DNA of 28,249 nt from Chthoniobacteraceae bacterium (GTDB taxonomy: Bacteria > Verrucomicrobiota > Verrucomicrobiia > Chthoniobacterales > Chthoniobacteraceae): NCBI GenBank assembly GCA_031409335.1, contig JANNWY010000070.1:1-28249 (forward strand), in the 5' to 3' direction. The notes beneath the pieces are model-generated. The model saw only the letters and a program-made list of their open reading frames with translations, was not told where the DNA came from and ran no database searches. Below, one piece after another: positions 1 through 24,722 of the stretch. The first letter of the stretch is position 1, and each line of letters opens with the position of its first letter. A program made the position numbers and the translations under genes.

Positions 1-2636
1 CGCAAATTGCACGTTGGCCGGCGGGGTTGCGTGCATCCGGCCCTGATTCTCCGCGACGATGCCATCGACGGGATAACCCACCAGCGTCTTGAGCGCGGAT
101 GAAAGCAAAAACTCGTTGTCCGTGGCATCGCTCGCCAGATACCCACTGAAGCGCCCGCGCGCGGCGTCCTCTGTAAAATAGATCGCCGCCACATCAAGGT
201 GCTGCGATTGCGCTGATGAACTGCCGGGCGTCGCCTCCGCGATTCGCCGCGAGGCGTATCCGTCGAAGACATACGCACCACGCGGAATGAGTGGCTTCGG
301 CTCGTAGGTCCCGCGATCCCGCTGGAAGAGCCATTGCAACCCCGCCGCATAACTTAGCGCGCCATCGTCAAAGACCACATGCCCCGCCGTCGCCACCACG
401 CGCGCCCCTCCGGTTCGCATCAGATCGACCCTCACCGCAAAACCCGTGGCCACCCCCACACTGCTGCGGAGCTGCCCCACGAAGGCATAAGGCAGATTCG
501 TACTCGTCGAGACTGTTTCAAAAGGCAGCACACCCGGTGTCGTTCCACTCGGCGCATCCGCGAGGAAGTAGGTGGCCGTCGGTGCGCTCGGCGGGCCGTC
601 TTGCACCGGCACATTGAGCGGGGGCGGTGTCGTCCGCCCGGCCACCGGCTTGCACTCCACGAGATAGTTGCCCGGCACCAATCCCGTGACCAGCGCTCCA
701 CTGTCCCGCCAAGTCGGCGAGGTTGCATCGTTTGGAGCCGTCGGATCGCCCTCCCCGAGCAGCCGCCACTGCGCCCGCACCGGCTGCGCGACTCCGGCCG
801 CGGCCAGCGCATCCGGTTTCAGAGTGACCGTCAATCCTCCGCTACCCACCGTTTCGGCTTCGTAGTATTCCTTCTCCAGTTCCACCTGTGCCCCGCCGCT
901 GATCACACTCACCGTTTCCGGCGGCGGCTGGGTGTAACCCGGCACCGGCCGGAACTCGACCGTCCGGTCCCCCGTCGTCAACCCACCCGCCAGCACTCCC
1001 GAAGCCCGCCACTGCTGCTCCCCCACAAACCGCCACCCGAACCCCGTTACACCACCAGGAATCAGCGTCACGAACACACTTCCCTGCCGCTCCCCAAACC
1101 CCACCAACCCAGGAAATTGCTGCGTAAAACCCGAAAGAAGATCCAGCACAAGAGGCATTGCCGCACTCACCCCCACGCCCCCCGCACTCGTCCCCTTCAC
1201 GCGGTAGAAATATGTCGCCTGCTGCGGCAGTCCGCTCAACGTCGCGCTCACCGCGACAGGAGCGCTGCCATTCACCGTCAGCGGTGTCGCCACCACGTTG
1301 TTTGGGAAATTGACCCCATCGGTCCCATACTCAAACACCACGGTAGTCAACGCCGCCAGCGCATTGACTGTCCCGTGAAGCGTCGCGCTGCTCGAAGTCA
1401 CAGCCGTCGGTGCCAACGCCAACGGCACGGGGTCCGTCAGCGTGGTAAAACTCTGCACACCGCTGACCGTCGTTCCTCCCGCATTGGTGGCCACGATCCG
1501 GTAGAAAAAAGTCGTTCCAGGAGGCAGACCGGTCGCAGTAAACGTCACCGGCATCGGGCTATTTCCCAGCACTAGCGGTACGCTGGACGATGTTTTGAAG
1601 ATAAAGCCATCATCCGTGGCATACTCGAAAGTCACAGTCGCACCGTAGTTGCGCGCGTTCACCGTGCCGTTCAAAGTCGCGCTGCCATTGGCATTGGTAT
1701 TCGGGCTCGCCAAGTCCCGCACGATCGCCGTGGCGGGCGTGGCTACTGCCAGTGGTCCAGCGAGCGTGGAAAAACTTGTTACCGGGCTGACTGTCGTTCC
1801 CGCACTGCTCACCGCGCGAAAGCGGCAGAAATAGGTCGTCGCTTCGGCCAGCGGGTCCAGCGTGGTGCCGACGAGCTGGGTCTGGTAGCCACTCAGACTC
1901 GCCACGACCGGCACCGTGTTCAGAAAACTCACGCCGTCGGTTCCGTATTCGAGGGATACTACAGTCGCCGCACCCCGCGCATTGACGTTGGCGTCCACCA
2001 CAACGCTTGCACCGCCTTGGAGCGAGACGTTTCTCACCGCGACTGTGGGGGCGCCGGCAAAGATCAAGCGGTAGATGGTGCCATCGCCACCAGTGCCGAA
2101 TCCAGAGGTCGTTCCATAGAGATTTCCATCCGCAGCGACGATGAGATTCCCCAATGGATTGTCACCATCTGATCCCCCAAGGAACTCTCGTATGGTCGTC
2201 AGGTCCCCCGCAGTTGTCATTTTGAACACCGTCCCAAGGCCGTTCGCTCCGCCTAGTTTAGTCGTCCCGTAGAAATTGCCGTCAACGCCCTCCACCAAAC
2301 CCGCAACGGGCTGTCCCTTGTTCGTTACCCCATCGCCGGTGAATTCCACCAGCGTCATCAGCGCCCCCGCAGGTGTCATCTCGAAGACCGTGCCAAGGCC
2401 ATGCGCACCCCCATTTCGAGTCGTCCCGTAAAATTTGCCGCCAATGCCGCGCACCAAGCCCGCATATGGGTAAGCGCCCTTGGACGCCCCCCCGTCGCCG
2501 GTGAACGTCACCAAAGTCGTCAACGTTGTTCCCTCGGCTGTTCCGTTGGTAGTCAATTTGAACACGGTGCCTAGGCCGATCGTGTCGTTTTGTTGTTCAG
2601 TCAGCCCGTCCGTTGTCCCGTAGAAAGCGCCGTCGC
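1..2636 (-). pseudogene. C-terminal continuation of paralog A (3 more GloVer repeats, 3 FN3-like domains, PEGA-like domains, trypsin-like protease domain); runs off the window edge
   Basis: Manual translation gives an open frame from YGTTDGLTEQQNDTIGLGTVFKLTT through GTIYRLIFAGAP, GWRFVGEQQWRASG, VVATAGHVVFDDG (His codon 379-381), QHLDVAAIYF and KTLVGYPVDG to MHATPPANVQFA at base 1. It is colinear with paralogs B and C. Absent from the ORF track, probably because it has no stop in the window. Confidence 0.88.
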
Positions 2637-4400
2637 TGTCCCGTAGAAAGCGCCGTCGCTGTCCCGCACCAAGGCCGCATGAGGATACGCGCCCTTTCGC
2701 TCTCCCACGATGCCCGTGAACTCCACCAACGTTGTCAACATCGTTCCCTCGGCTGTTCCGTTGGTAGTTATCTTGAACACCGTGCCAATGCTGTTCGCAC
2801 CACCCCGTTCTGTCGTTCCGTAGAAATTCCCGCCGCTATCCTGCACCAAGCGCGCATAAGGGCGAGAGCCCTTGTTCGTCCCGCCGTTGAAGGTGAACTC
2901 CACCAAGGTCGTCAGCACGCCCGCAGGCGTCATCTTAAACACCGTGCCATGGTTATTCACGCCGCCGTGTGTGGTCGTCCCGTAGAAGTTGCCGTCGCTG
3001 CCCTTCACCAAGCACTGACGCGGGAAACTGCCGTTGTTCGCCCCCCCAATGCCAGTGAACTCCACCAAGGTCGTCAGCAGCCCTGCAGGCGTCATCTTGA
3101 ATATCGTGCCAACGCCGTTCGTACCGCCGTTAACAGTCGTCCCGTAGAAACTGCCGTCGGTATCCTGCACCCCCTGAAAAGGATACACACCCTTATTCGA
3201 CACTCCGTTGACGGTGAAATCGACCAAGGTCGTTAGCACCCCAGCGGGCGTCATCTTGAACACCGTGCCACTACCGATCGGACCGTTCGCGCCGCCCGCG
3301 TAAGTCGTCCCGTAGAAGTTGCCGTCGTTGGCCTGAATCAAGCCCGCACGCGGGTAAGCGCCCTTGTCCGAAGCCTCGTTTCCGGTGAAACTGACCAGCG
3401 TCTGCAGTGTAGTGCCGGAAGGGGTTCCATCTGTGGTCATCTTAAATATTGTGCCAAGGCCGTTCGGGCCGCCGTATTCAGTCGTCCCATAGAAGTTGCG
3501 GTCGCTACCTTGCACCAAGCCTGCACTAGGTGATCGGCCCTGGTTCGACGCCCCGATGCTGGCGAACTCCACCAAGGTCGTCAGCAGCCCTGCAGGCGTC
3601 ATCTTGAACACCGTGCCAGTGTCATTCACGCCGCCAATGTAAGTCGTCCCGTAGAAGTTGCCGTCGTCGCCCTGCACCAAGGCGGCCTCGGGATCACGCC
3701 CCTTGTTGGACGTCGCATCGCCCCTGAACTCCACCAAGGTCGTCAGCGTCCCCACACTCGTCATCTTGAACACCGTGCCATAGCCGTATTCAAGATTGCC
3801 GGGATTTTGCCCAAACGTGCCACCCTGGGAGGTTGTGCCGTAGAAATGCCCGTCAGCCCCCTGCACAAGCCCGCCGGGGCGCCGTCCCTTGTTGCTGGTG
3901 CCGTTGTTGCTGAACTCCACCAAGGTCGTCAGCGCGCCATGCGGCGTCACCTTGAACACCGTGCCAAAGTTATTCGCACCGCCTTTGCTAGCCGTTCCAT
4001 AGAAGTTGCCGTCGCCGCCCATGCCATGCACCAAGCCTGCGATAGGGCGAGAGCCGTTGTTCGCTCCCCCGATGCCGGTGAACTCGACCAAGGTTGTCAG
4101 CACCCCGGCAGGCGTGACCTTGAACACCGTGCCATAGCCGGCCTCATCGCCTGCTCCGCCTTGTGCACCGCCTTGTTCAGTCGTCCCGTAGAAGCTGCCG
4201 TCGCTGCCATGCAATAAGCCCGCATAAGGGTAAGCACCCTTGTTCGCCCCCCCGATGCCGGTGAACCTAACCAAGGTCGTCAACACTCCCGCAGGCGTCA
4301 TCTTGAACACCGTGCCAAAGCCGCTCGGGCCACCGCTTCGAGTCGTCCCGTAGAAGTTGCCGTTGCTGCCCTGCACCAAGCCTGCAAGAGGGACCGCGCC
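2060..4400 (-). repeat. Intragenic GloVer repeat array of paralog A
   Basis: 14 copies once the frameshift is corrected; recurrent gtcatcttgaacaccgtgcc...gtcgtcccgtagaagttgccgtcg. Confidence 0.88.
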
Positions 4401-4556
4401 CGTGTTAGCTATGTCCGCCGCTCGCGCCTCGGTGAAGTCGAACGTCTTCTCATACACCTGCCCGGTAGCAGCGGGAGTCAACGCTAACAAGTAAAGGGCG
4501 AGGATTGAAACGATCCGACTGAAAACCACCCGAAGGCGCAAAAGATTCTGACTCAT
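2601..4556 (-). CDS. N-terminal part of paralog A: signal peptide plus about 11 GloVer (Gloeo_Verruco, TIGR03803-like) repeats, truncated by a frameshift
   Basis: 651-aa ORF with signal-like start MSQNLLRLRVVFSRIVSILALYLLALTPAATG/QVYE and tandem ~54-aa repeats P-x-AGLVQGSDGNFYGTTxxGG...GTVFKMTPAGVLTTLVEF. Ends in an out-of-frame tail (ATALSTGQRTG*) after the duplication at 2614-2659. Confidence 0.9.
   Translation of the reverse strand: MSQNLLRLRVVFSRIVSILALYLLALTPAATGQVYEKTFDFTEARAADIANTGAVPLAGLVQGSNGNFYGTTRSGGPSGFGTVFKMTPAGVLTTLVRFTGIGGANKGAYPYAGLLHGSDGSFYGTTEQGGAQGGAGDEAGYGTVFKVTPAGVLTTLVEFTGIGGANNGSRPIAGLVHGMGGDGNFYGTASKGGANNFGTVFKVTPHGALTTLVEFSNNGTSNKGRRPGGLVQGADGHFYGTTSQGGTFGQNPGNLEYGYGTVFKMTSVGTLTTLVEFRGDATSNKGRDPEAALVQGDDGNFYGTTYIGGVNDTGTVFKMTPAGLLTTLVEFASIGASNQGRSPSAGLVQGSDRNFYGTTEYGGPNGLGTIFKMTTDGTPSGTTLQTLVSFTGNEASDKGAYPRAGLIQANDGNFYGTTYAGGANGPIGSGTVFKMTPAGVLTTLVDFTVNGVSNKGVYPFQGVQDTDGSFYGTTVNGGTNGVGTIFKMTPAGLLTTLVEFTGIGGANNGSFPRQCLVKGSDGNFYGTTTHGGVNNHGTVFKMTPAGVLTTLVEFTFNGGTNKGSRPYARLVQDSGGNFYGTTERGGANSIGTVFKITTNGTAEGTMLTTLVEFTGIVGERKGAYPHAALVRDSDGAFYGTATALSTGQRTG
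2614..2666. repeat. 23-bp perfect tandem duplication with 7-bp microhomology, causing the frameshift in paralog A
   Basis: TGTCCCGTAGAAAGCGCCGTCGC at 2614-2636 and 2637-2659, followed by TGTCCCG at 2660-2666. Removing one unit restores DSDGAFYGTTDGLTEQ. Confidence 0.93.
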
Positions 4557-4659
4557 GGGATTTGGGTTCTTGGTGGGTTTTCGTTGTCTATTTCTTTGCC
4601 TCTGAACTTCCGCTCTCGAAGCAGTATGAAAGGGGTGATTCCGGCTGGGTCATCGTCTC

Positions 4660-4872
4660 GGGGATGTCATCAAAATTTCCATCACTGGCGCGTGAGCGTA
4701 AATCGGCTGCTGGTGACTTTCGTGGGAGACGGCTCGGCGTCGGTGACAAACGAAGCCTGAGCGCGGCGAAGGCCGTCGAGCCGATCCCGCCCAAAAACAA
4801 AGCCGTGGTGAATTTCACGAGGCAGATGCGATGCCGGGGGAGGGATGGATGCACGCGGGGATGCGAAGCGGG
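4660..4872 (-). repeat. Decayed copy 1 of a GloVer-gene 5' end (signal-peptide N-region plus ASDGNFD fragment)
   Basis: 4799-4871 is similar to 6201-6272 (ASHPRVHPSLPRHRICLVKFTTAL vs MKTASHHPLHPSLPRHRISIVKMT). 4668-4690 (catcaaaatttccatcactggcg) matches 5342-5364 and encodes ASDGNFD. Confidence 0.7.
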
Positions 4873-4876
4873 GAAA

Positions 4877-4936
4877 GTGACACGGGTTTTCCAGCCCGTG
4901 AATCTCGCCATGCACCGACTGGAAAGCCGATGGCAC
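4877..4936. repeat. REP/REPIN-like element of two inverted palindromic arms
   Basis: Left arm gtgacacgggttttccagcccgtg (4877-4900) and right arm caccgactggaaagccgatggcac (4913-4936). Each arm is a hairpin and they are imperfect inverted copies. A sibling element is at 5467-5565. Confidence 0.7.
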
Positions 4937-5004
4937 AGGACCATCGCAGTAAGACCGGGCCGTGGGGAGAACATGACCGGAAAAAGCCGCACCCGCTTTT
5001 CGCC

Positions 5005-5253
5005 CTACCCCTGGGGCGCGGCACCCTGTTGAGCCGACTCGGGCTGCGGCTTGTAGTTCAAGCGCGTGATTTGCGAGATGCTGATGTGATCCACCTGCCC
5101 ATCGCGCTGCTCGACGAAGACCATGAGGCCGGTGTGCAACATCCACGCGTAATCGTGGTGATGGACGACGATTTCCTGCCCGTCAGCCGTGAAGATCGAG
5201 AAAGGACGGAAAGGCTGCGCACGCAGCATGGAGCGGAGTTCATCGGCGATCAT
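5005..5253 (-). CDS. Small hypothetical protein (82 aa, PFRPF motif)
   Basis: MIADELRSMLRAQPFRPFSIFTADGQEIVVHHHD... is protein-like and resembles small hypothetical proteins I recall from Planctomycetota/Verrucomicrobiota. Function unknown. Confidence 0.75.
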   Translation of the reverse strand: MIADELRSMLRAQPFRPFSIFTADGQEIVVHHHDYAWMLHTGLMVFVEQRDGQVDHISISQITRLNYKPQPESAQQGAAPQG

Positions 5254-5465
5254 GGCGGGAGAGTAGGATGAGGAATATCGGCAGGCAAGCAGACGTTTGA
5301 AAAGTGAATGAGGCCAACCGCGCCGCCGACTTCGGTGGAACCATCAAAGTTTCCATCACTGGCGAGGAGGAGCTTGCCGGAAGGGAAGTTGCCCGCCGCC
5401 GTGTCCTGGAGCGAGACGAGCCTTTCCAAAACCTGCCCCCGCGCCCCCGCCGCGAGGAGGAGCAG
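5250..5465 (-). repeat. Decayed copy 2 of a GloVer-gene 5' end
   Basis: Encodes LLLLAAGARG/QVLERLVSLQDTAAGNFPSGKLLLASDGNFDGSTEVGG...PTLPP*. 5356-5465 matches 6061-6170 at 104/110 nt by manual count. The stop overlaps the ATG at 5251-5253 (ATGA). Confidence 0.85.
5254..5265 (-). promoter_or_regulatory. Possible -10 element for a leaderless transcript of the 82-aa gene
   Basis: The minus strand reads TACTCT-CCCGCC-ATG, a TANNNT hexamer 6 nt before the start codon, with no Shine-Dalgarno sequence. Confidence 0.35.
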
Positions 5466-5466
5466 A

Positions 5467-5565
5467 GTAACACAGGCTTTCCCCATCGACAGGCTCAGGG
5501 CCTTGAGCTTGGCGAAACGGCAGCCTGTGAGCCCGCCCACGCACCGGCTGGAAAGTCTGTGCCAC
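5467..5565. repeat. REP/REPIN-like element with a second hairpin nested in its left arm
   Basis: gtaacacaggctttc [39-bp insert 5482-5520, hairpin tcgacaggctca..tgagcttggcga] cagcctgtg ... caccggctggaaagtctgtgccac. Confidence 0.7.
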
Positions 5566-5581
5566 CTTGAGCGCGCCGCCT

Positions 5582-5782
5582 TCACAGGCCCAACTCGCGC
5601 GCGACATCCTCGAAAGGCCGGGTGGGTGCGCCGCCTTCCTCGCGTTTGGCTTCCCGCAGGGCGAGCAAGTCCTCGGCATCGTCGATCCATGCGCGCATGG
5701 CGATGTATTCCTCGTAGGGCAGGACGACGAATTCTTCGCGCCCGTTTTTTCGCAGGATTTCAGGGTGCAGTTCGATGGGCAT
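5582..5782 (-). CDS. Type II antitoxin (Phd/YefM- or RelB-like, 66 aa), partner of the RelE toxin
   Basis: MPIELHPEILRKNGREEFVVLPYEEYIAMRAWIDDAEDLLALREAKREE...FEDVARELGL; acidic and directly downstream of relE. The start is the ATG at 5780-5782; the 160-aa track ORF is over-extended. Confidence 0.85.
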   Translation of the reverse strand: MPIELHPEILRKNGREEFVVLPYEEYIAMRAWIDDAEDLLALREAKREEGGAPTRPFEDVARELGL

Positions 5783-5802
5783 GGTGTGCGGTATTTGGAT
5801 GG

Positions 5803-6051
5803 TCAGCGATAAGCCTCGCGGCGATGGAGGATGCGATAAACGACGACGGCGTCGTTTTCGATCTCGAAAAGGACGCGGTAATCGCCCACGCGCAACCGGT
5901 AACTCGGGACGAATTGAGTGAGGCGCTTTACGTCGCCCTGCAAGTCTTCGCGCAAAGCACGGAGTTTTTCCGCCACGCGCTCCTGCTCCGCGCGAGGCAG
6001 CGCCCGGATGTCTTTTTCGGCTTTGGGCTTGAGGTCGAGGGAGTAAGTCAT
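5803..6051 (-). CDS. relE: RelE/ParE family type II toxin (82 aa)
   Basis: MTYSLDLKPKAEKDIRAL...VKRL...YRLRVGDYRVLFEIE...VVYRILHRREAYR carries the canonical RelE motifs. Confidence 0.93.
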   Translation of the reverse strand: MTYSLDLKPKAEKDIRALPRAEQERVAEKLRALREDLQGDVKRLTQFVPSYRLRVGDYRVLFEIENDAVVVYRILHRREAYR

Positions 6052-6279
6052 GCGACGCGATCACTGGCGAGGAGGAGCTTGCCGGAAGGGAAGCTGCCCG
6101 CCACCGCGTCCTGGAGCGAGCCGGGCCTTTCCAAAACCTGCCCCCGCGCCCCCACCGCGAGGAGGAGCAGGCAACCCATGATGGCGCTACTGCCGCGCAT
6201 AAAGCCGTGTCATTTTCACGATGCTGATGCGATGCCGGGGGAGGGATGGATGCAGGGGGTGATGCGAAGCGGTTTTCAT
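6048..6279 (-). repeat. Decayed copy 3 of a GloVer-gene 5' end (most complete, with its own ATG); includes a 43-aa mini-ORF at 6048-6179 overlapping the relE start
   Basis: ATG at 6277-6279 gives MKTASHHPLHPSLPRHRISIVKMT; after a frameshift it reads MGCLLLLAVGARG/QVLERPGSLQDAVAGSFPSGKLLLASDRVA*. The TGA overlaps the relE ATG. Confidence 0.82.
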
Positions 6280-6301
6280 GGGGGAGGAACGCGAGAGCTT
6301 T

Positions 6302-6704
6302 TTAGAACAGCGCGTGGAAACCCGCTTCGGTGAAATGCCGGTCATTCGTGAACGCCCGCCGCAGTCCGAGCCGGCGCATGACCGCGAAGGACAGTTCATC
6401 GACGAGACCGGGCGCGCCGGGGAATCCGCTCTGGTAGTGTTCCCAGGCTGTCTCGAAGTCCGCCTCGGTCGGATGAATCAGGCCGCGATACGAGGCCAGC
6501 AGCGTCCGCAGATCGACGACGGATTCGCGAAAAGGCCGACCGCGCGGTGGCGTTCGCACATTCAGCCAGTACGAAGGTCGTGGTGAAAAGCGTGGCGCGC
6601 TCCCGCTTCACCGCTGTGAAGGCAGTCGAGGCCGCGCTGTGCCATTGGTCATCTTCATTCCAGACGGCTAAAAGCCCCACGGTGTCGAGGAACACTGGGC
6701 TCAC
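6302..6704 (-). pseudogene. vapC: PIN-domain VapC toxin with a +1 frameshift near 6540
   Basis: N-half MSPVFLDTVGLLAVWNEDDQWH...TTTFVLAECANATAR and C-half RPFRESVVDLR...GLVDELSFAVMRRLGLRRAFTNDRHFTEAGF are in different frames. The 403-nt span equals 134 codons plus 1 nt. PIN acidic motifs are intact. Confidence 0.88.
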
Positions 6705-6913
6705 GGCTGATGCTCATTGTGGCGCTCGGCGGTGTCGTGGCACCCTGAGCGAAACCGTCGTGAGAGCACTTCGTAAACGGCGTCGAGGGTCGCCGGGTCT
6801 GGCTCCGGCAAGGGGGCCGAGAGCGAAAGCTCCACCCGCGAATGCTCCGGGAGATCGACCTTCTCCAGCGGGCGAAAAACGCCGTGCTCGTAGATGGCGG
6901 TGACGGTGCTCAT
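6701..6913 (-). CDS. DUF104/AF2212-like antitoxin (70 aa), upstream partner of VapC
   Basis: MSTVTAIYEHGVFRPLEKVDLPEHSRVEL fits the AIYE-GVF-PL..V.LPE signature; GTGA overlap with the vapC start. Confidence 0.88.
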   Translation of the reverse strand: MSTVTAIYEHGVFRPLEKVDLPEHSRVELSLSAPLPEPDPATLDAVYEVLSRRFRSGCHDTAERHNEHQP

Positions 6914-7035
6914 GGGCGGGAGGAAAGCAGAGAATGGCCGTTAGCGCGACGTGAAAGTTTCGGACCGCAGTCCGAGCCGCCGATCTCGGATGAGCCATAA
7001 AAGTTCCCGCTACTGGCGGGGAGGAACAGTGTGAC
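6910..7035 (-). repeat. Decayed copy 4 of a GloVer-gene 5' region
   Basis: Encodes VTLFLPASSGNFYGSSEIGG (compare LLLASDGNFDGSTEVGG). The frame runs to a TGA overlapping the antitoxin ATG at 6911-6913. Confidence 0.65.
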
Positions 7036-7280
7036 ACGGCCTTTCCTCTTCTGCTGGCTCAGGCGGGGCGGGCGATGAGGTGGATGTCGCGCTCGGCCGC
7101 GCCATGACAACGATCCGCGTGAAGCGCCCATTCATTTTAGCGGCCTGCGGCCAGTTGCTCTTCATTGCGCGGCGGAGCGACGCCATCCACCTTTCCAAAT
7201 CACGCCGGCGCCGACTTCGGGGACTCCCTCTGAGAAAATGTTTGTCGGACGCCGCTGGAGAAGCGCATCTTCCCAGCGCT

Positions 7281-10200
7281 ATGCACCCTCGAATTGCTGG
7301 TTGTCTCCTGGTTCTCACTCCGTTGATTTTTCTCCCGCAACTGGCGCGAGGTCAGGATGCGTCGGTGATCGAGGTGGAGCGGGTGGTCTCGATCGAGAGG
7401 CCGGGGGCGAAGGCGGCTGCGGCGAAGAATGATGATCCGCTGGCGGTACGGGATATTTTGCGGACGGGGTTGAAGAGTCGGGCGACGGTGCGGCTGAATG
7501 AGCGGGAGCAGTTGCGCGTGGGACAGACGACGGATTTGCAATTGCTCGGGCTGCAAGTGCCGGGGGGACAGGGGGAGCCTCGGGAGATTTCGATCCGGCG
7601 TGGGGTGGTTTACATTTTTAGCCGGGAGCCGGAACAGCGGGTGAATATTAAGACGCTGGCGGGGAACGGGGCGTTGCGCGGGACGCAGTTGATCGTGGAG
7701 GTGCGGGGGAATCGGGCGCTGTTTGCGCTGCTGGAGGGGGAGATGGATTTGTCTAACTCGAAGGGGAAACTGACTTTGAAGCCGGGGGAATTTGGGGAGA
7801 TGCGTCCGGGGCAGGCTCCGCGCAAAACGGCGGTGTTGGAGGCGAAGAATATTTTGCAATGGGCGTTGTATTATCCGGCGGTGCTGGATCCGACACAGTT
7901 AGGGCTAACTCCTGGTGAGGAGTCTAAGATTGCGGGTTCGCTGGAGGCTTATCGCGCGGGGGATTTGCTGGGGGCTTTGGAGAAGTACCCGCTGGGGCGG
8001 AGCGGGGGACCGTCGGCAGCGCGGGTGTATCGCGCGGGGATTTTGCTGGCGGTGGGGCGGGTTGATGATGCGCGGGCGGAGTTGCGCGGGGTGTCGAGTG
8101 CGGCGCCGGGGCGGCGGGCGATTGAGCAGTTGATCGCGGCGGTGAACTTTGAAGATTTTCCCGAAGGTGAACCTTCGGATGCGGCGGGATGGGTGGCGCA
8201 GTCTTATTACGAGCAGTCTAAGAGCAAGCTGGATGCGGCGCTGGCGGCGGCGAAGAAGGCGGCGGAGTTATCGCCGGACAATGGTTATGCGTGGACGCGG
8301 GTGGCGGAGATGGAGTTTTCGTTTGGGCACACGCCGCAGGCGCTGGATGCGCTGAAGCGGGCGCTGGAGCTGACTCCGCGCAATGCGCAGGCTCATGCGG
8401 CGAATGGGTTCGCGTTGAGCGCGCAGAATCGGATCAAGGAAGCGCGCGCGGCGTTTGATGAGGCGATCGCGCTGGATGGGGCGCTGGGGAATGCGTGGCT
8501 GGGGCGTGGCTTGGTGACGATCCGGCATGGCGACTTGGCGGCGGGGCTGCTCGATCTGCAAACAGCGGCGACGCTGGAGCCGCAGCGGGCGATTTTTCAT
8601 AGCTATCTCGGCAAGGGATATAGCCAGTCGGACGATAGCTCCAGTGCGACGAAGGATCTGGATTGGGCGAAGACGCTTGATCCGAATGATCCGACGCCGT
8701 GGCTGTATTCGGCGATCCAGAAGAAGCAGGAAAATCGCTACAACGAATCCATCGCCGATCTGGAGCAGTCGCTCGCGCTGAATGAAAACCGGCGCGTGTA
8801 TCGCTCGAAGCTGCTGCTCGATCAGGATCGCAGCGTGCGGAGCACAAACCTGGCGTCGATTTACCAAAACAATGGGATGACGGATGTGAGTGTGCGCGAG
8901 GCGGCGAAGGCGGTGACGAGTGATTACTCGAACGCCTCGTCTCACCTTTTCCTGTCGAACAGCTACGAGGTGTTGCGCGATCCACGCCGCGTGCAATTGC
9001 GGTATGAGACGGCTTGGTTCAATGAACTATTGCTCTCGAACCTGCTCTCGCCCGTGGGTGGCGGGTCGCTTTCGCAGTATGTTTCGCAGCAGGAATACTC
9101 GAAACTGTTCGAGAGTGAGGGCCTGGGGATCAGCAGCGTGACTGAGTATTTTAGCAATGGAGATTTCCGGGAGACGGGGTCTCAGTATGGAACGGTTGGG
9201 AATCTGAGCTATGCGCTGGATGCGGAGTATCTGTATCAGAATGGCATTCGCCCGAACAACGAGATCAGCCGCTTTGAGGCCTATGCGACGTTCAAACTTC
9301 AGATCACTCCACAGGATACGATCTTCCTAAAGACGAAGTATGAGGACTTGCAGAATGGGGACATTTTTCAGCGGTTCGATCAGCGGGAAGTGAATCGCAC
9401 CAATCGCTTGGCGAATACTTTCGACTTCCGCGAATTGCAGGAGCCAGCGCTGATCCTTGCGGGGCTGCATCACGAATGGTCGCCTGGAAATCACACGCTG
9501 GTGCTGGCGCAGCGGCTGGCGAATGATCAGGTGCTGACGGCGGAAGGTGGCGGGTTCGATATATTGCAGCGGGACATTACGGGGGAGATTCCACCGGGCT
9601 TCGATGCCTCGGGCATTGATCCCAACCGACCGCTCGCGAACCGCAGCCTGCTGGATTTGCTGAATGGTCTGCGCGGACGGGGCATCCTGGAGCAATACTT
9701 CCCGGCTGGGATCGCGCTGGATGTGGATTACCGCGCGAACTTTGAAATCTATGGCGGGGAAGTGCAGCAGATTTTCACGATCGGGCCACACACGCTGGTT
9801 GGCGGAGGGCGCTTTCAGTCGGGGACGTTCGAGACGCAATCGCTGCTGCAAAATCTGCCGCCTAATCTTGCCGGTAGTGAGAGCCTCTTTCTCGATCCGC
9901 CGGCCCGGCAGAATTTCTCGGTCGATTTCGAGCGGATCAATCTCTACTTCTACGAGACATGGAAAGTGGCTCCCTGGCTGTCGCTAACCGGCGGCGTGAC
10001 CTACGACAAACTCACTTACCCGGAGAATTTCCGCAGCATTCCCATTTCAAATCAGGATCAGACGCTGGAGCAGACTTCCCCCAAGGCCGGCTTCATCTTC
10101 CAGCCGCACCGATCTGTGACTCTACGCGGCGCATATACCCGCGGTATTTCAGGCGTGAGCTTTGATGAAAGTGTTCGTTTGGAGCCGACGCAGGTCGCCG

Positions 10201-13090: not shown

Positions 13091-16000
13091 CTACGGCATG
13101 GTAACTTTGAGCCTGCCGTAGCGCGTGGTCGAAGCTGGCTGTGGGTCAGTGACCTTGACCCGCTCCCAAGTGGTGTCGATGGGTGTCACTACTTCCGTGC
13201 TGCCTGTAGTCCACCCATTCGGATTGGTTAGAACGCTGTTAAATTCAACGCTGTAAGCAATCCCGGGCGAGCCAGCCGCCCTCCGCCGGACGAACTCCGC
13301 CGTGAGCCTCTGCTGGCCGCTGACGTTTTCCGAGCGGATCAGCGGTAGTCCGCGTGTGCCCGTCACTGCGGTCATCGTGATCCGATCTCCTAGTTTCGGA
13401 TCCAGGTTGAGCGAAAATTCCAGGAGCGTATTCACCCCATCGCCGTCAAAGTCCGCGAGCGAACCGGAGATCAGCGGGTTGCCGAGTTCGGCGGCGGTAA
13501 AGCGCCGCGTCCGCCATGCATTCAAGTTGTCGCCCAGCACATCGAAAGATTGAATCTTGTTTGCCGCGGCGCTGTAGTTGCCGCTGCCGGGCTGACTCGC
13601 CCGCACCGTGACCGTGCCGAGGCCCGTCGGTGTGAGCGTTGCGCCCGCGATCGTGGCGGGTCCGGAGAGGATCTGGAAGGCCACGGCCAATCCCGAACTG
13701 GCCGGTGCATCGAGGATGAAGCTGCCATCATCGAGGATGCGGTTTGGCGGTTGCGGGAAGGTGATCACCTGCGCCGTGGGATTCACCGTCAGCGTCGCGA
13801 AACTGCTAAGGATTACTCCATTCGGCCATGTCACCGCTACGGCGTATTCGCCTTCGTCGGAGTTGTCCGCATTGGAAAGAGTGTAGGAACTCGATGTGGC
13901 TCCGGGAATCAAAACCGTCGCGCCTACCGGGGGCCTGAAGCGCCACTGATAGCTATTCGGTGTTCCCGATACAGCGACGCTGAAGGTCGTGTCTTGAAAT
14001 GCGAAGATGGTGCGGTTGGCTGGGTGGGTGGTGAAGCCATTGTAGGGCACGCTGATGGTGGAAAGCACTCCGGCGGTCAGCGTCCGGGAGGTCGTGGCGG
14101 GTGTGATGAAACCGGGAACTGCCGTAAGCACGAGATTATAGTTTGCCGGTGTCAGACCCGTAAGCTGTGTGCCGCCGGTATAGGCCGTTCCATTCGTGCC
14201 CAGCCTCCACCGGGCGCCTCCGTTTACCGCGCTCGCTGGGCTGATATCTACGACGAGTGAGGCCAGCGAAAACCCCCCGCCCCCGATCGGCGTGTTGATC
14301 TGCACGATGCCCCCGCCGGTATTGTTCGGATCTTCGTCATAGCCGCTGTCCTCGGCGCGGCGAAAAAGGGCGATCAACTCGCTGTCGATGGAGCGCACCA
14401 CGGTCTGCCCCGCACCGCCGAGGAAGATGCCTGCCGGGTAGTAGGTGCCGTCGTCAAACTGGACGCAGAGCGGGCCACCCGAATTCCCGCCACTGGAGTG
14501 GATTTCGCTCGTCGCGTAGAGCCGGAAGGGCGTGCCGTCGGGGTAGGGCGAGGCAGGCGCGGGTGGGTCTAAAACGGTCGTCGTGCCCGGCACGCGCGCA
14601 AAGTGGATGTTCGCCACCGGAGTCGCGTGCATCCGGCCCTGGTTTTCCGCGTCGATGCCATCCAAGGGGTAGCCCACCAGCGTCTTGAGCGCGGGCGAGA
14701 GCAGGAAGGGGTTGTCCGGCGCGTCGCTGGCGAGATACCCGCCGAAGCCGCCGCGCGCCGCGTCTTCGAGGAAGTAAATCGCCCCCGCGTCGAGGTGCTG
14801 CGACTGCGGCGAAAAATTACCGGGCATTGCCTCCGCGGTGCGCCGCGCCGCGTAGCCGTCGAAGACGTAGGAGCCGCGTGGGATGAGCGGCTTCGGCTCG
14901 AAGGCGCCGGCATCGCGCTGGAAGAGCCATTGCAGCCCGGTCGCAAAGGCCAGCGCGCCGTCGTCGAAGATCACCTGCCCGGCGGTCGCGACCACGCGCG
15001 CCCCACCCGTCCGCGCCGGATCGACCCGCACCGCGAAGCCCGTGCCCACACCTACATTGCTGCGAAGCTGGCCGACATATCCGTAAGGCAGATTCGGGCT
15101 CGCGGTCACGGTCTCAAACGGCAGCACGCCGGGCGGTGTCCCGGTCGGCGTACTGGCTGGGATATACGTGGCCGTCTTCGCGACCGTCTGGCCGTCGAGC
15201 AGCGGCACATTGAGGGGCGGCGGCGTGGCCCGCCCGACCACCGGCTTGCATTCCACGAGGTAATTGCCGGCCAGCAGCCCCGTGATCGTCTCTCCGCTAT
15301 TCCGCCAGGTCGCCGATTGATTGTCGTCCGGATCGGTCGGATCGCCCTCGCCGAGAAAGCGCCACTGCGCCCGCACCGCCTGCGCCATATTCACGTCGGC
15401 CACGTCGTCCGGTTTCAAAACCACCGTCAGCGTGCCCGACCCGACCGCGCCGGTCGGAGTATAGGTGCGACTCCAGAAAACCGGTGCCCCGCCGCTGATC
15501 ACACTCACATTCTCCGATGGTGGCTGGAGGTAGCCCGGCACGGGGCGAAACTCCACCGTGCGATCCCCGGTGGTCAGGCTCCCCGCCAGCGCCCCCGAAG
15601 GCCGCCAGGCCTGCTCTCCCGCAAAACGCCAGCCTGCAGCGATCCCCGCGGGGCTCAGATCGATCACGACAAAGCCCAGCGCCTCGGGCGGCGTCTCTGG
15701 GAACGTCTGGGCAAACTGCGAAAGCAGATCCAACTCCAGCGGCAGCTCCGCGCTCACGCCCACGCCGCCCGCGCTCGTCGCCTTCACCCGGTAATAATAG
15801 GTCACCCCCGGCGTCAATCCGCTCACGTTCACGGTCACCGGCACCGGCGAATTTCCGCTCACCGTCGCGGGCATCGCGACCACGGTATTCGAATAAGTTC
15901 CCGGAACTGTCCCATACTCGAAGACCACCGCAGTCAGCGTCCCCCGCGCCTCGACCGTCCCGTGCAGCCGCGCGCTTTGGTCCGTCACCGCCGTCGCCGC

Positions 16001-18823
16001 CCCCACGACCGCGACCGGTTGGGCCAGCGTCGAAAAGCTCTGCGTCGCACTCACCACCGTCCCCTCCGTATTGGTCGCCACGATCCGATAGCGATAGGCC
16101 GTCCCCTGGACCAATCCCGTCACCGTCGCGCTCACCGGCACCTCGCTGGCACCCGTTAGCGGTGATGGCGTCGCCGCCACTTGATTTGGAAAGCCCTGTC
16201 CGTCCAAGCCCCACTCGAAGATCACGGTCGTGGCGTAGCCTCGTGCGTTCACGAGGCCCTGGAAGCGGGCGCTGGTGGCGAGGACGCTGCTCGGCGCACT
16301 GACCGTGGCGGTCGGGGCCGACAGCGTGGTCAAAAAGTTCGCCACCTGACTGACCGACGTCCCCGCGCTACTTACCGCGCGGAAGCGGTAGTAGTAGCGC
16401 GTGTTGGGGGTCAAAGCCTCCAACGTGGTGCCCACTAGGCGGCTTTGGTAACCGGTCAGATTAGTTGCGACGGGCACGATGTTGGGGAAGTTCACGCCGT
16501 CGGTCCCGTATTCGAGCGCCACGGCGGTCGCCGCACCGCGGGCGTTGACCGTGGCATCGACGACCGCACTGAAGCTCCCCAGGGCCGCGGCATTTGCAAA
16601 GACCAGCGGTGCGCCGGGAAAGAGGAGCCGGTAGATACTGCCATCCGGCCCGGCCGTGGTCCCGTAGAGATTGCCATCGGCTCCGGGAATCAATCCCGCC
16701 GTTGGATTTCCCTCCTCGGGAATGGTGAACTCGACCAGCGTCGTCAGCACCCCGGCGGAGGTCATCTTGAAGACGGTGCCGACGCCATTCGTGCCACCCT
16801 CCGAGGTCGTGCCGTAGAAACTGCCATCGCTGCCCTGGACCAAGCCGGATCGAGGCTGAGCCCCTTTGTTGCTCGCCCCGTTGTCCGTGAACTCCACCAA
16901 GGTCGTCAGCACTCCGGCCGGTGTCATCTTGAAGACGGTGCCACGGTCGGCCGCGCCACCGAATCCGGTCATGCCGTAGAAACTGCCATCGCTGCCCTGG
17001 ACCAAACCAGCGTAAGGATAACTCCCTTTGTTGCTTGCCCCGTCGCCCGTGAACACCACCAAGGTCGTCAGCACTCCGGCCGGTGTCATCTTGAAGACCG
17101 TGCCGAAGCCGGCCGTGCCACCCTCCGAGGTCGTGCCGTAGAAACTTCCATCGCTGCCCTGGACCAAGCCAGCGTAAGAATAACTCCCTTTGTTGCTCGC
17201 CCCATTGCCGGTGAACTCCACCAAGGTCGTCAGCACTCCGTCCGGCGTCATCTTGAAGACCGTGCCGAAGCTGGCCGCGCCACCCTCCGAGGTCGTGCCG
17301 TAGAAATCCCCATCGCTGCCCTGGACCAAGCCAGCTCGAGGATGAGCCCCTTTGTTGCTCGCCCCGTTGCCGCTGAACACCACCAAGGTCGTCAGCACTC
17401 CGTCCGGCGTCATTTTGAAGACCGTGCCGGAGTTGGAGCCACCCTCCAAGGTCGTGCCGTAGAAAGTTCCATCGCTGCCCTGCACCAGACCAGCAAGAGG
17501 AGAACTGCCATTGTTGCTCGCCCCGTTGCCGGTGAACTCCACCAAGGTCGTCAGCACTCCGGCCGGCGTCATCTTGAAGACCGTGCCGGCATTATTCGCG
17601 CCACCCCTAAAGGTCGTGCCGTAGAAACTTCCATCGCTACCCAGCACCAAGTCTGCAGCAGGGGAACTCCCCTTACTGGATGTCCCGCTGCCGGTAAACT
17701 CCACCAAGGTCGTGAGCACGCCGGCCGGTGTCATCTTGAAGACGGTGCCGACGCCATTCACGCCCCCGAAAATGGTCGTGCCGTAGAAACGTCCGTCGCT
17801 GCCTTGGACCAAGCCAGCTTGAGGTTGAGAGCCTCGGTTGCTCGCCCCGTCGCCGGTGAACACCACCAAGGTCGTGAGCACGCCGGCCGGTGTCATCTTG
17901 AAGACCGTGCCGACGCCACCCGCGCTACCGGATTGGGTCGTGCCGTAGAAACTTCCATCGCTGCCTTGGACCAAGCCAGCTTGAGGATTCCTCCCTTTGT
18001 TGGTCGCCCCGTTGCCCGTGAATTCCACCAAGGTTGTGAGCACTCCGGCAGGCGTCATCTTGAAGATCGTGCCGAAGCCGATCGCGCCACCCTGCGAGGT
18101 CGTGCCGTAGAAACTCCCATCGCTGCCCTGGACCAAGCCCGCTTGAGGATTCCTTCCTTTGTCGGTCGCCCCGTTGCCGGTGAACTCCACCAAGGTCGTC
18201 AGCACTCCGGCAGGCGTCATTTTGAAGACCGTGCCGAAGCCGGTTGCACCACCGGTTAGGGTTGTGCCGTAGAAATTTCCATCGCTGCCCTGAATCAAGT
18301 CAGCTCGAGGTTGAGCCCCTTTGTTGCTGGCCCCGTTGCCGGTGAACTCCACCAAAGTCGTGAGCACTCCGGCCAACGTCATCTTGAAGACGGTGCCGGA
18401 ATCGGACGCGCCGCCCAGCGCGGTCGTGCCGTAGAAATTTCCATCGCTGCCCGGGACCAAGCCAGCGAAAGGATAAGCTCCTTTGTTGCTTGCCCCGTCG
18501 CCCGTGAACTCCACCAAAGTCGTCAGCACTCCGGCCGGCGTCATCTTGAAGACTGTGCCGACGCCGTCCGCGCCACCTCCAGAGGTCGTGCCGTAGAAAC
18601 TTCCATCGCTCCCTTGGACCAAATCAGCCACAGGCACACTCCCTTTGTTCGGGGTATTGCCCTGATCGGTGGCACGCGCCGCAGCAAAGCTGTAGATATT
18701 CTCGTACACTTGGGCACAGGCTGGCGGGACGAATCCCGCCGCCCCGAGCGCCACGGCGCAAAGCGCGGCGGCGAGGCGGACGGGGAACAACACGGGGAAC
18801 CGGCGGGGGAAGAGGGTGTTCAT
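13091..18823 (-). CDS. Paralog B: 1910-aa secreted protein (13 GloVer repeats, 3 FN3-like, PEGA-like, trypsin-like domain with His->Gln, Ig-like, conserved C-terminal domain)
   Basis: Signal peptide ending ACA/QVYE; 13 YG(T/M)T repeat cores; TAGQ, HLD and GNSGGP motifs; C-terminus ADFDGDG...ERVKVTD...RYGRLKVTMP. Confidence 0.93.
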   Translation of the reverse strand: MNTLFPRRFPVLFPVRLAAALCAVALGAAGFVPPACAQVYENIYSFAAARATDQGNTPNKGSVPVADLVQGSDGSFYGTTSGGGADGVGTVFKMTPAGVLTTLVEFTGDGASNKGAYPFAGLVPGSDGNFYGTTALGGASDSGTVFKMTLAGVLTTLVEFTGNGASNKGAQPRADLIQGSDGNFYGTTLTGGATGFGTVFKMTPAGVLTTLVEFTGNGATDKGRNPQAGLVQGSDGSFYGTTSQGGAIGFGTIFKMTPAGVLTTLVEFTGNGATNKGRNPQAGLVQGSDGSFYGTTQSGSAGGVGTVFKMTPAGVLTTLVVFTGDGASNRGSQPQAGLVQGSDGRFYGTTIFGGVNGVGTVFKMTPAGVLTTLVEFTGSGTSSKGSSPAADLVLGSDGSFYGTTFRGGANNAGTVFKMTPAGVLTTLVEFTGNGASNNGSSPLAGLVQGSDGTFYGTTLEGGSNSGTVFKMTPDGVLTTLVVFSGNGASNKGAHPRAGLVQGSDGDFYGTTSEGGAASFGTVFKMTPDGVLTTLVEFTGNGASNKGSYSYAGLVQGSDGSFYGTTSEGGTAGFGTVFKMTPAGVLTTLVVFTGDGASNKGSYPYAGLVQGSDGSFYGMTGFGGAADRGTVFKMTPAGVLTTLVEFTDNGASNKGAQPRSGLVQGSDGSFYGTTSEGGTNGVGTVFKMTSAGVLTTLVEFTIPEEGNPTAGLIPGADGNLYGTTAGPDGSIYRLLFPGAPLVFANAAALGSFSAVVDATVNARGAATAVALEYGTDGVNFPNIVPVATNLTGYQSRLVGTTLEALTPNTRYYYRFRAVSSAGTSVSQVANFLTTLSAPTATVSAPSSVLATSARFQGLVNARGYATTVIFEWGLDGQGFPNQVAATPSPLTGASEVPVSATVTGLVQGTAYRYRIVATNTEGTVVSATQSFSTLAQPVAVVGAATAVTDQSARLHGTVEARGTLTAVVFEYGTVPGTYSNTVVAMPATVSGNSPVPVTVNVSGLTPGVTYYYRVKATSAGGVGVSAELPLELDLLSQFAQTFPETPPEALGFVVIDLSPAGIAAGWRFAGEQAWRPSGALAGSLTTGDRTVEFRPVPGYLQPPSENVSVISGGAPVFWSRTYTPTGAVGSGTLTVVLKPDDVADVNMAQAVRAQWRFLGEGDPTDPDDNQSATWRNSGETITGLLAGNYLVECKPVVGRATPPPLNVPLLDGQTVAKTATYIPASTPTGTPPGVLPFETVTASPNLPYGYVGQLRSNVGVGTGFAVRVDPARTGGARVVATAGQVIFDDGALAFATGLQWLFQRDAGAFEPKPLIPRGSYVFDGYAARRTAEAMPGNFSPQSQHLDAGAIYFLEDAARGGFGGYLASDAPDNPFLLSPALKTLVGYPLDGIDAENQGRMHATPVANIHFARVPGTTTVLDPPAPASPYPDGTPFRLYATSEIHSSGGNSGGPLCVQFDDGTYYPAGIFLGGAGQTVVRSIDSELIALFRRAEDSGYDEDPNNTGGGIVQINTPIGGGGFSLASLVVDISPASAVNGGARWRLGTNGTAYTGGTQLTGLTPANYNLVLTAVPGFITPATTSRTLTAGVLSTISVPYNGFTTHPANRTIFAFQDTTFSVAVSGTPNSYQWRFRPPVGATVLIPGATSSSYTLSNADNSDEGEYAVAVTWPNGVILSSFATLTVNPTAQVITFPQPPNRILDDGSFILDAPASSGLAVAFQILSGPATIAGATLTPTGLGTVTVRASQPGSGNYSAAANKIQSFDVLGDNLNAWRTRRFTAAELGNPLISGSLADFDGDGVNTLLEFSLNLDPKLGDRITMTAVTGTRGLPLIRSENVSGQQRLTAEFVRRRAAGSPGIAYSVEFNSVLTNPNGWTTGSTEVVTPIDTTWERVKVTDPQPASTTRYGRLKVTMP
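16640..18650 (-). repeat. Intragenic ~162-bp tandem repeat array (GloVer repeats) of paralog B
   Basis: Recurrent gtgaactccaccaaggtcgtcagcactccggccggtgtcatcttgaagaccgtgcc...gtcgtgccgtagaaacttccatcgctgccctggaccaagcc with ~162-bp period. Confidence 0.9.
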
Positions 18824-18845
18824 AGCGGCTGGACGGTTGACTGGG

Positions 18846-21800
18846 CTACGGCATGGTGACCACGAGGCGACCGTAGCGGACGCTGGGGTTGATTTCCGGG
18901 TCGATGACTTTCACCCGCTCCCAAGTGGCGTCGATCACCGTGGCGGTGCCGGGGCCGCCATCGAGCCAGGCGGCGAGGTCGCCGGAAAACTCCACCCGGT
19001 AGGTGATGCCCGGCTGGCTCGTGGCCCGGCGGCGCACGAATTCCACCGTCACCCGGGCCTGGCTGGCGATGATTTCGCGCTGGATCAGCGGCAGGCCGCG
19101 GGTGCCAGTGTCGGCGAGCATCGTCTCGCGGTCGCTGACCCTCGGGTGAAGGTTGAGGGCGAATTCGAGGAGCGTGTTCAGCCCGTCAGCTTCCACATCG
19201 GCCAGCGGACCGGAAATCAGCGGATCCTCCCGCTCGGTGGCGGTGAAGTATTGGCCGCGCCACTCGTCGAAAACACTCTCGACCTGGAAGGTGCGGTCTT
19301 GGGACGCGGGGAGGTAATTGCTGCTTCCGGGCTGATTCGCGCGCACCGTAATGGTGCCGCCCGCGGTCGGGGTAAGCGTCTTGCCGCTGAGTGTGGCCGG
19401 GCCGGAGACGACTTGGAAGCTCACCGCGAGGCCCGAACTGGCCGTGGCGCTGAGCATGAAAGAGCCCGCACTGACCTGCCGGTCGGCGATCGCGGGGAAA
19501 GCGATCGTCTGGGCGGCGCGGGTGACGGTGAGCGTCGCGTCGGCGCTGGTCACCGCGCCATTCGGCCAGGTCACGACGACGCTGTAGCCGCCTTGCGTGC
19601 TGCTGGTCACACCCGTCCGGACATACGGATTGGTGGTGGCACCGCTGATGTTGGCGCCGTTGCGCCGCCATTGGTAGCCGGTGGGCGTGCCGGAAACGCC
19701 GACGCTGAAGGTGGCGCTGGTAAAGGCGGTGACGGTGCGATCCTGCGGCTGGGTGGTGATGCCGTTATAGTGCAGGGTGATCGTGGAAAGCATGGCTGCC
19801 GTCAGCGTCCGGACCCGATCGCCGGGTGGCAGGAAATACGGGACATCGGTGAATTTCAGGGTGTGCGCTCCGGGCATCAGACTATCGAGTTGCGTCCCGT
19901 TCGGGTGGATCGTCGCGTCAGCATCCAGCTTCCAGGCCGCGCTCGCGGGCGTCAGATTCACCTTCAACGACGCCAGCGAAGGATCCCCACTGCTCAGCGT
20001 ATCGTCCTGCGTGAGGCCCCCGCCGGGGTTGTTCGGATCGTCGTCAAAGCCGCTGTTCTCGGCGCGGCGGAAAAGGGCGATCAAGGCGCTGTCGATGGAG
20101 CGCACGACGGTCTGCCCCGCGCCGCCGAGGAAAATGCCCGCCGGGTAATAGGCCCCGTCGTCAAACTGCACGCACAAGGGTCCACCCGAATTTCCGCCCG
20201 CGGAGCGGATCTCGGTCGTCGCGTAGAGTCGGAGAGGCGAGCCGTTGGGGTAGGGTGAGGGTGGGTCAAGAGCCGTGGTTGTGCCCGGCACGCGCGCGAA
20301 GTGGACGTTGGCCAGCGGGGTCGCGTGCATCTTGCCCTGGTTCGCGGCGACGATGCCATCCACGGGATAGCCCACCAGCGTCTTGAGCGCGGACGAGAGC
20401 AGGAATGGATTGTCCGGCGCGTCGCTGGCGAGATACCCGCCGAAGCCCCCGCGCGCGGCGTCTTCCAGGAAATAGATCGCCCCCGCGTCGAGGTGCTGCG
20501 ACTGCCGTGTGGAAATGCCGGGCGTCGCCTCTGCGGTGCGCCGCGCCGCGTAGCCGTCGAAAACGTAGGAGCCGCGCGGGATGAGCGGCACCGGCTCGAA
20601 GGTGCCGCGATCGCGCTGGAAGAGCCATTGCAGCCCCGTCGCAAAAGCCAAAGCGCCGTCGTCGAAAACCACATGCCCGGCGGTGGCAACCACGCGCGCC
20701 CCACCCGTCCGCGCCAGATCGACCCGCACCGCGAAGCCCGTGCCCGCGCCCACATCGCTGCGGAGCTGGCCCACGTATCCGTAGGGCAGATTCGTGCCCG
20801 CCGAGACGGTCGCAAACGGCAGCACCCCCGGCGGTGTCCCGGTCGGCTCACTGGCCAGGAAATACGTCGCCGTCCTCGTGGCCGTCTGCCCGTCCAGCAC
20901 CGGCACATTCAGTGGTGCCGGCGTGGCCCGGCCGATCACCGGCTTGCATTCCACGAGGTAGTTGCCGGGCAGCAGCGCCGTGACCATTTCTCCGCTATTC
21001 CGCCAGGTCGCCGATTGATTGTCGTCCGGATCGGTCGGATCGCCCTCGCCGAGGAAGCGCCACTGCGCCCGCACTGCCTGCGTCACGTTCACGTCGGCGA
21101 CATCGTCCGGTTTCAAAATCACCGTCAGCGTGCCAGACCCGACCACGCCGGTCGGAGTATAGGTGCGACTCAAAACCACGGGCGCCCCGCCGCTGAGCAC
21201 AGTCACATTCTCCCGCGGCGGCGCGAGGTAGCCCCGCACCGTCCGATACTCCACCGGGCGAACTCCGGTCGTCAGCCCACCCACCGGCAGCCCCGAAGCC
21301 CGCCAGGCCTGCTCCCCCGCAAAGCGCCAGCCTGCGGCGATCCCCGCGGGACTCAGATTGATCGCGACAAAGCCCAGCGCCGCCGGCGGCACGCCCGGAA
21401 ACGTCTGCGCAAATTGCGAAAGCAGATCGGGCGAAAACGTCCCGACCGCACTCACCCCAATCCCGCCCAGACTGGTGCCTTTCACCCGGTAGGAATAAAT
21501 CGCGTCCGGCGTCAACCCGCTCAAATCCACGCTCACCGGCACCGGCGAATCTCCGCTCACCGTCGCGGGCGTGGCCGCCACGCTGTTCGGAAAAGTGACG
21601 CCATCGGTCCCATACTCAAAGACCACCGAAGTCAGTGTCCCCCGCGCATCGACCGTCCCGTGGAGCCGCGCACTCTGCGCCATCACCGCCGTCGCCGCCC
21701 CCACCACCGCCACCGGTTCGGCCAGCGTCGAAAAACTCTGCGCTGCACTCACCGTCGTCCCGCCCGCATTGGTCGCCACGATCCGATAGTGATAATCCGT

Positions 21801-24641: not shown

Positions 24642-24722
24642 AAGTTTTGTCTCCGGGTTTGGGATTTGTGTCGGCAGCTCTTCCTCTCACTTTGCACGTC
24701 CCGCGAAAAACTCGTCGCGCGC

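Follow-up and report, generated by a model that had tools for sequence, protein, structure and literature searches.

Truncated GloVer gene copies and ATGA overlaps in a toxin–antitoxin gene array of a Chthoniobacteraceae bacterium

Three small gene units in a Chthoniobacteraceae genome each start on an ATGA whose TGA closes the open frame of a truncated gene copy immediately upstream, which raises the question of whether these overlaps serve expression of the downstream genes, record a filter on how the pieces were joined, or are fortuitous. The window analysed here is a complete contig of 28,249 nucleotides (G000:C70) from a 7.9-Mb assembly with 62% GC. On its minus strand, from 7191 to 4556, the array runs REP element, stub A, AF2212 antitoxin and frameshifted PIN toxin, stub B, ParE/RelE toxin and Phd-like antitoxin, REP element, stub C, orphan gene MIADE, REP element, stub D and a GloVer gene (Table 1). 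The cargo comprises three small units, namely two toxin–antitoxin (TA) pairs and one orphan gene. All three overlaps read as the original prediction had described them: the first stop of the GloVer-homologous frame of stubs C, B and A is the TGA within the cargo ATGA, giving ...PTLPP-stop/MIADE at 5253, ...LASDRVA-stop/MTYSL at 6051 and ...LSSRP-stop/MSTVT at 6913, each on the minus strand. Contigs of public sequencing runs bridge every junction by at least 31 nt on each side (5253 and 6913 in X1 and X3, 6051 in X1 and X2); the three runs belong to one study, and X1 may be the source sample. The proposal that the junctions are independent also held, as the three represent separate events.

Table 1. 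Features of the array and the adjoining GloVer gene, in minus-strand order (window positions).
Feature	Position	Strand	Remarks
REP-like imperfect palindrome	7079..7191	.	Many genome copies; holds ATG 7131, the only in-frame ATG of stub A
Stub A ORF, 73 aa	6910..7131	-	REP end, internally deleted GloVer stub (~7026-6960) and cargo leader; stop on AF2212 ATGA
AF2212 residual leaderless promoter	6914..6949	-	TCGCGC-17-TTTCCT-7-ATG; both boxes altered; 19th percentile of unfused homologues
AF2212-like antitoxin	6701..6913	-	PF01954, 42.2 bits (cut-off 21.6)
PIN-domain toxin gene	6302..6704	-	Frameshifted near 6515-6560; same in X1 and X2 contigs
Stub B leader	6201..6272	-	89% identical to 4799-4871; homologous to parent promoter/5′ UTR; no recognisable promoter left
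Stub B ORF, 50 aa, MRGSSAIMG...LASDRVA	6048..6200	-	Original ATG, signal peptide, first blade start; stop on relE ATGA
ParE/RelE toxin (relE)	5803..6051	-	PF05016, 45.9 bits (cut-off 23); without own promoter
Phd/RelB-like antitoxin	5582..5782	-	PF02604, E 9e-5; 22.6 bits, below cut-off 29.8
REP-like element, second repeat nested inside	5466..5570	.	Replaces stub C start, supplies ATG 5486
Stub C ORF, 78 aa	5250..5486	-	Frame open from 5759; GloVer-homologous 5465 to ~5305; stop on MIADE ATGA
MIADE own leaderless promoter (predicted)	5254..5288	-	TTGCCT-17-TACTCT-6-ATG
Orphan gene MIADE, 82 aa	5005..5253	-	Predicted Hfq/Sm-like small beta-barrel
REP-like palindrome	4874..4937	.	Between MIADE and stub D
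Stub D, start lost, degenerate	4588..4871	-	Frame stops 34 nt before next ATGA (GloVer gene at 4556); negative case of the window
GloVer gene MSQNL, downstream	2601..4556	-	Paralogue, not the parent of the stubs; frameshifted near 2640 by short tandem duplication

The ParE/RelE–Phd-like and AF2212–PIN units both consist of family matches in a two-gene operon, the criterion for type II toxin–antitoxin systems, and are predicted type II modules on this sequence evidence. The PIN fragment scores 19.1 bits against PIN_3, below the cut-off of 27. Stub A has lost its start to a REP element, the PIN partner is frameshifted, and the AF2212–PIN unit appears to be in decay. For one cargo gene, the best named homologues are found in Verrucomicrobia/Chthoniobacteraceae and Planctomycetota MAGs. 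Family searches did not place MIADE among TA genes and returned no match in Pfam, NCBIfam or PADLOC; its family occurs in 32 of 151 genomes of the bacterial family and in large unnamed Atlas clusters, with members that are usually leaderless and standalone. Its predicted fold (pLDDT 85) is an N-terminal helix followed by a small beta-barrel that probably resembles Hfq/Sm, the model matching Hfq with a Z score of 7.3 and an rmsd of 2.3 over 60 residues, values that other small barrels tie. Canonical Hfq (TIGR02383) was not found in this genome or in the relatives G002 and G165.

Judged by homology spanning the leader, ATG, signal peptide and first blade, the stubs are 5′ fragments of a secreted GloVer gene. 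They score 19.9 and 12.9 bits against the GloVer-repeat profile TIGR03803 (cut-off 44) and cover only part of one repeat; they are 5′ fragments of a GloVer-repeat gene, not members of TIGR03803. The source assembly contains no parent gene; a search of the 151 family genomes located a full-length homologue, a 1374-codon ORF in G165:C6 with 64% amino acid identity. Neighbouring MSQNL was considered as the parent and rejected, the stubs having no close match in the source genome. The MSQNL frameshift (2601-2670, minus strand) is a tandem duplication of ~23 nt that is identical in the X1 and X2 contigs. Farther along the window (13091-28249, minus strand), three more giant secreted genes with C-terminal domains in common lie in tandem; two are GloVer genes (1910 and 1931 aa), and the third, which reaches the contig end, has a disrupted 5′ part there.

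The complete list of in-frame ATGs in stubs A, B and C (7131, 5486, 5690, 6200 and 6179) confirmed that two of the three stubs lack the original start. Stub B alone keeps it: of its two in-frame ATGs, 6200 and 6179, the former aligns with the ATG of the parent. A REP end replaces the start in stubs A and C; ATG 7131 lies inside a REP hairpin, while ATGs 5486 and 5690 of stub C are REP-derived and inside the antitoxin gene, respectively. The palindromes resemble repeats flanking a transposase gene on contig C23, which we take to be RAYT-like, and Rfam gave no match for the window palindromes or the array. Stub B joins relE ~9 nt ahead of its ATG, and the final ~12 codons preceding MIADE and ~15 preceding AF2212 belong to the cargo's own leader and not to GloVer. 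Since the MIADE promoter geometry and the ...CGCC-ATGA end recur in a stubless homologue in G002, the last codons of the open frame correspond to the cargo's own promoter. Stubs B and C differ at six positions, all six non-synonymous, a pattern compatible with plain decay of a peptide that is probably under no selection.

ATGA starts are abundant in this SD-poor genome, where they account for 53% of 4581 ATG starts and form the commonest overlap among its own gene pairs (103 of 341 close same-strand pairs); 20 of the 28 ORFs called upstream of its 31 PIN loci start this way. Homologue counts that leave out the query and one duplicate give the same start for 15 of 16 distinct AF2212 genes and 17 of 28 MIADE genes, and the wider set of AF2212 loci has it in 103 of 143. 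Strict ATGA was found in 1 of 21 other relE homologues; for the closest, in G165, the script called no start, and inspection showed ATGA. These counts suggest that the cargo ATGA is mostly intrinsic. An ATGA start closes one upstream frame in any case, and therefore it is the frame register that needs testing. Among 45 arbitrary repeat frames ahead of an ATGA start, 18 end on its TGA, as do 2 of 6 stubs of low-copy genes, giving a per-junction null of 0.33-0.40 once ATGA is granted. Against this null, three of three window junctions, picked post hoc, correspond to p 0.021-0.064 given intrinsic ATGA (0.003 unconditionally). The genome-wide survey that the original prediction had proposed as its check therefore offered no enrichment, low-copy stubs standing at 2/6 against 18/45 for arbitrary repeat frames in a small sample. 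In the underlying survey of 5′ ends, 97 of 110 cases were REP-like and served only as the null. A survey for fragments of the genome's own proteome upstream of 1730 small genes produced 68 'truncated-like' rows, mostly frameshifts or mis-calls, and was unusable. Screening the genome for short ORFs with signal peptides gave 417 candidates, among which only the two stubs of the window were recovered and no further array.

Further junctions were found at a paralogous locus of the same genome and in G165. The paralogous locus, on contig C9 (21030-20000, minus strand), carries a HEPN-like gene, a 33-aa mini-ORF, an antitoxin–PIN pair and a GloVer gene; the mini-ORF contains the same stub remnant and has an ATGA overlap with the HEPN-like gene, the antitoxin–PIN pair follows the mini-ORF by ATGA, and an element with three recombinases lies just upstream. 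In G165, contig C1 has four stubs derived from a different secreted gene; a distinct cassette stands behind each of them, and the intact parent comes last. On C127, the closest relE homologue is joined to a HEPN stub, and a further stub precedes an AF2212–PIN unit. Each G165 cassette closes with a spacer and first codons of its own, after which the shared signal-peptide sequence begins. Neither the AF2212 loci (143 usable out of 160) nor 308 loci scanned for repeats yielded another stub-fused array, and among the loci searched such arrays were found only in the source genome and G165. Twelve junctions were tabulated; dropping the last C127 stub, whose next gene does not begin with ATGA, and merging three G165 stubs that share one joint left nine. 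A stub on G165:C32, at a contig end and without cargo, is likewise outside the count.

At these nine independent junctions the stub frame stops on the TGA in six, stops early in three (stub D and G165 stubs 2 and 4) and never reads into the cargo; the absence of read-through has a chance probability of ~0.005 using approximate gap lengths. Past a 1-nt break, the frame of G165 stub 4 is in register, which brings the junctions in register to 7/9 (p 0.008-0.025). These statistics come from few junctions, three of which prompted the analysis. When those three are set aside, 3/6 stop on TGA, and the five TA junctions outside the discovery set are open in 3/5 (p 0.21) and in register in 4/5 (p 0.045-0.087). 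The overlap is present at C9 and at 4/6 of the G165 stub–cassette junctions. The register bias recurs at these junctions of C9 and G165, which were unseen when it was first noted. Two stubs of unrelated origin, GloVer in the source genome and HEPN in G165, both join relE in register no more than ~10 nt from its ATG; the HEPN stub was noticed because of its overlap. The three G165 descendants of one joint have diverged strongly, with the frame still open and a length change of only 3 nt. The G165 junctions may nevertheless be relics or assembly errors, because the cassettes carry several frameshifts.

A consensus promoter scan returned 0 sites, being too strict for this genome, and we scored promoters instead with a matrix built from 52 unfused homologue leaders (-35 TTG, -10 TAnnnT; leave-one-out median 9.7, control 95th percentile 3.7). 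By this matrix the cargo's own promoters score 14.6 for MIADE, 5.8 for AF2212 and -2.0 for relE. The MIADE homologue of G002, which has no stub, shows identical promoter geometry and an identical ...CGCC-ATGA end, and MIADE is predicted from sequence to be expressed from its own leaderless promoter. A leaderless transcript starting at the cargo ATG is the outcome that the original prediction had named as speaking against it, and for MIADE that is what is predicted, with the top score. The leaders of stub-fused AF2212 and of G165 stub 3 retain an altered ancestral leaderless promoter (2.3-5.8; 10th-19th percentile). The ~45-nt AF2212 leader also occurs in G165, behind a different parent, and in G129 an AF2212–PIN unit with an intact TTGCTA-17-TACTTT-7-ATG lies directly upstream of an intact GloVer gene, plausibly the ancestral arrangement. 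Among the other cargo, C9 scores 7.5 (TTGGCA-17-CACCTT-6), G165 stub 2 10.4 and G165 stub 4 13.2, with an alternative of 9.7 for G165 stub 3; the HEPN stub itself likewise has a promoter-like score, 8.4.

The intact parent promoter TTGACG-17-CACCCT reaches 8.9 and the sequence ahead of stub B 0.6, and the trained matrix found no promoter for this stub; translation of any stub is thus putative. The idea of a captured host promoter consequently finds no support. Nor do the data favour a device for expressing SD-less cassettes. In a home-made gene call of the source genome (6061 genes, 86% coding), first genes have no SD peak; TAnnnT peaks among them at a spacing of 6 nt ahead of the ATG (29 of 824, versus mostly 2-10 at other spacings). 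TA operons of this genome are typically leaderless. Translational coupling, the remaining part of the proposal, is plausible at relE, with its promoter score of -2.0 and a stub that has the original ATG; it loses ground at MIADE, where an own promoter is predicted.

Arrangements with some of these properties are known. In polymorphic toxin systems, orphan cassettes lie downstream of the secreted gene and replace the C-terminal toxin of its product. Here 5′ stubs stand upstream within the array, and the cargo stays a separate cytoplasmic operon. What the two share is homology of the cassettes to a large secreted gene, with which recombination can occur (PMC3482391). Class 1 integrons have short ORFs at attI1 (ORF-11, ORF-17 and ORF-18) that end at or near the cassette start; in the ORF-11 type the peptide is irrelevant, the stop is partly supplied by the cassette, and translation of cassettes without an initiation region of their own is boosted (PMC8876359). 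The likeness lies in a short upstream ORF ending at the cassette start, a geometry present at all three window junctions, although a genuine start exists only at stub B, for which no promoter was found. ORF-11 sits in a fixed attI with an SD and the Pc promoter, and IntI moves the cassettes, whereas the mini-ORFs of the array are decayed 5′ ends of secreted genes with no attC or nearby integrase, and coupling is putative. By analogy, a stub–relE relay would work like ORF-11, through ordinary ATGA termination–reinitiation. That process acts at the same -4 overlap (PMC6728339), and coupling to uORFs is described as well (PMC13285730); the upstream partner here is a pseudogene stub and not a functional gene or regulated uORF. 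Chromosomal (super)integrons hold TA pairs in tandem arrays, often with their own promoter (PMC3948777), as does our array, but its spacers are stubs and REP elements and not attC sites. No attC pair (RYYYAAC...GTTRRRY) was found on either strand of 4540-7300, and no integrase among the ORFs of the window, which is the whole contig; by the attC test the array is not an integron array. One IntI above the TIGR02249 cut-off lies near the start of another contig of the source genome (C166, 399-1334), apparently unlinked to the window, and none over the cut-off was found in G165. Our search of mostly openly accessible literature found no description of such stub–cassette arrays.

We favour, with a probability of about 0.5, an integrase-free TA array produced by stub recombination, in which joints that led ribosomes from a translated stub into the cargo were weeded out and coupling is likely only at relE. 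Small TA-type cassettes would each have been placed behind a truncated 5′ GloVer copy by recombination between stubs, without an integrase. As the cargo brings its own ATGA, which its homologues show, a stub joined in one of the three registers stops there automatically; in the other two, ribosomes would run into the cargo start or a signal peptide would be fused on, and such joints would survive only with an early stop. The register excess would then reflect a translation-dependent filter, with stubs that were presumably translated when the joints formed. Termination–reinitiation would be likely only at stub B–relE, which combines the original ATG, a cargo without promoter and probable read-through transcription, the last because no terminator was found between PIN and stub B. 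The architecture alone suggests that recombination between stubs may enlarge the arrays and reorder their cassettes. Surviving junctions divide 6:3 between overlap and early stop, which fits the ~0.26:0.35 expected under the null at 15 codons, and avoidance and positive coupling are therefore inseparable here. A more ambitious version, in which the stub is both a recombination handle for cassette insertion and shuffling and a throw-away leader ORF that relays ribosomes via ATGA, leaving the cassette promoter free to decay, strikes us as rather doubtful.

Chance combined with inheritance could also account for the pattern: recombination scars and an intrinsic ATGA would yield a lucky register, which duplicated fused units and post-hoc selection would amplify. 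The null that leaves three of three at p up to 0.064 fits this explanation, as do the predicted MIADE promoter, the missing genuine starts of two of three stubs, stub evolution free of amino acid constraint, the joint common to three G165 stubs and the 2/6 of low-copy stubs. It sits less easily with the absence of read-through at nine junctions, with relE in register behind two unrelated stubs and with the open frame of the strongly diverged G165 descendants, and we hold it to be possible but not probable. The original prediction, that cargo was retained by capturing a host promoter and start, with coupling at the ATGA serving SD-less cassettes in general, can draw on the overlaps in the window, at C9 and in G165, on the altered ancestral promoters of the AF2212 and G165 stub-3 leaders, and on ATGA coupling being established (PMC6728339). 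The degenerate stub promoter, the own promoters scored for MIADE, C9 and G165 stubs 2, 3 (alternative) and 4, first genes without an SD peak, and starts of stubs A and C within REP elements all argue against it, making it unlikely as a whole. Least probable of all in our estimation is a purely mechanistic bias, whereby joints at short microhomologies between codon-biased sequences favour one register with no selection on translation. Stubs B and C9 do break directly after the same GAT, stub A and the C9 stub look like products of a stub-C-type in-frame deletion between two CTCCTCCTCGC repeats, and the G165 relE deletion lies between short repeats; at MIADE and AF2212, however, the joints have non-coding promoter DNA on the donor side, which lacks the codon periodicity that could bias the register.

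Should the register bias hold in a larger set, the arrays would provide a natural experiment on how new genes become expressible in an SD-poor bacterium and a route to cassette arrays without an integrase. Should it fail, they would serve as a warning that about one-third of arbitrary upstream frames end in an ATGA overlap where more than half of the starts are ATGA.

In run X5, from another study, a stub-like contig (window 5324-5444) has a depth of 27.8 versus 3-8 for neighbouring pieces, and a relE–antitoxin contig (window 5581-5937) continues with different sequence past 5581; this hints weakly that a related organism has variable arrays in several copies. G165:C16 (L301, 790-4410) contains a different type of TA array, with five copies of a 31-nt repeat. 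Four of the copies are followed by a -10 box 7 nt before the ATGA start of TA or presumably DUF433-like cargo, and the last one directly adjoins a convergent pheS-like gene at its 3′ end.
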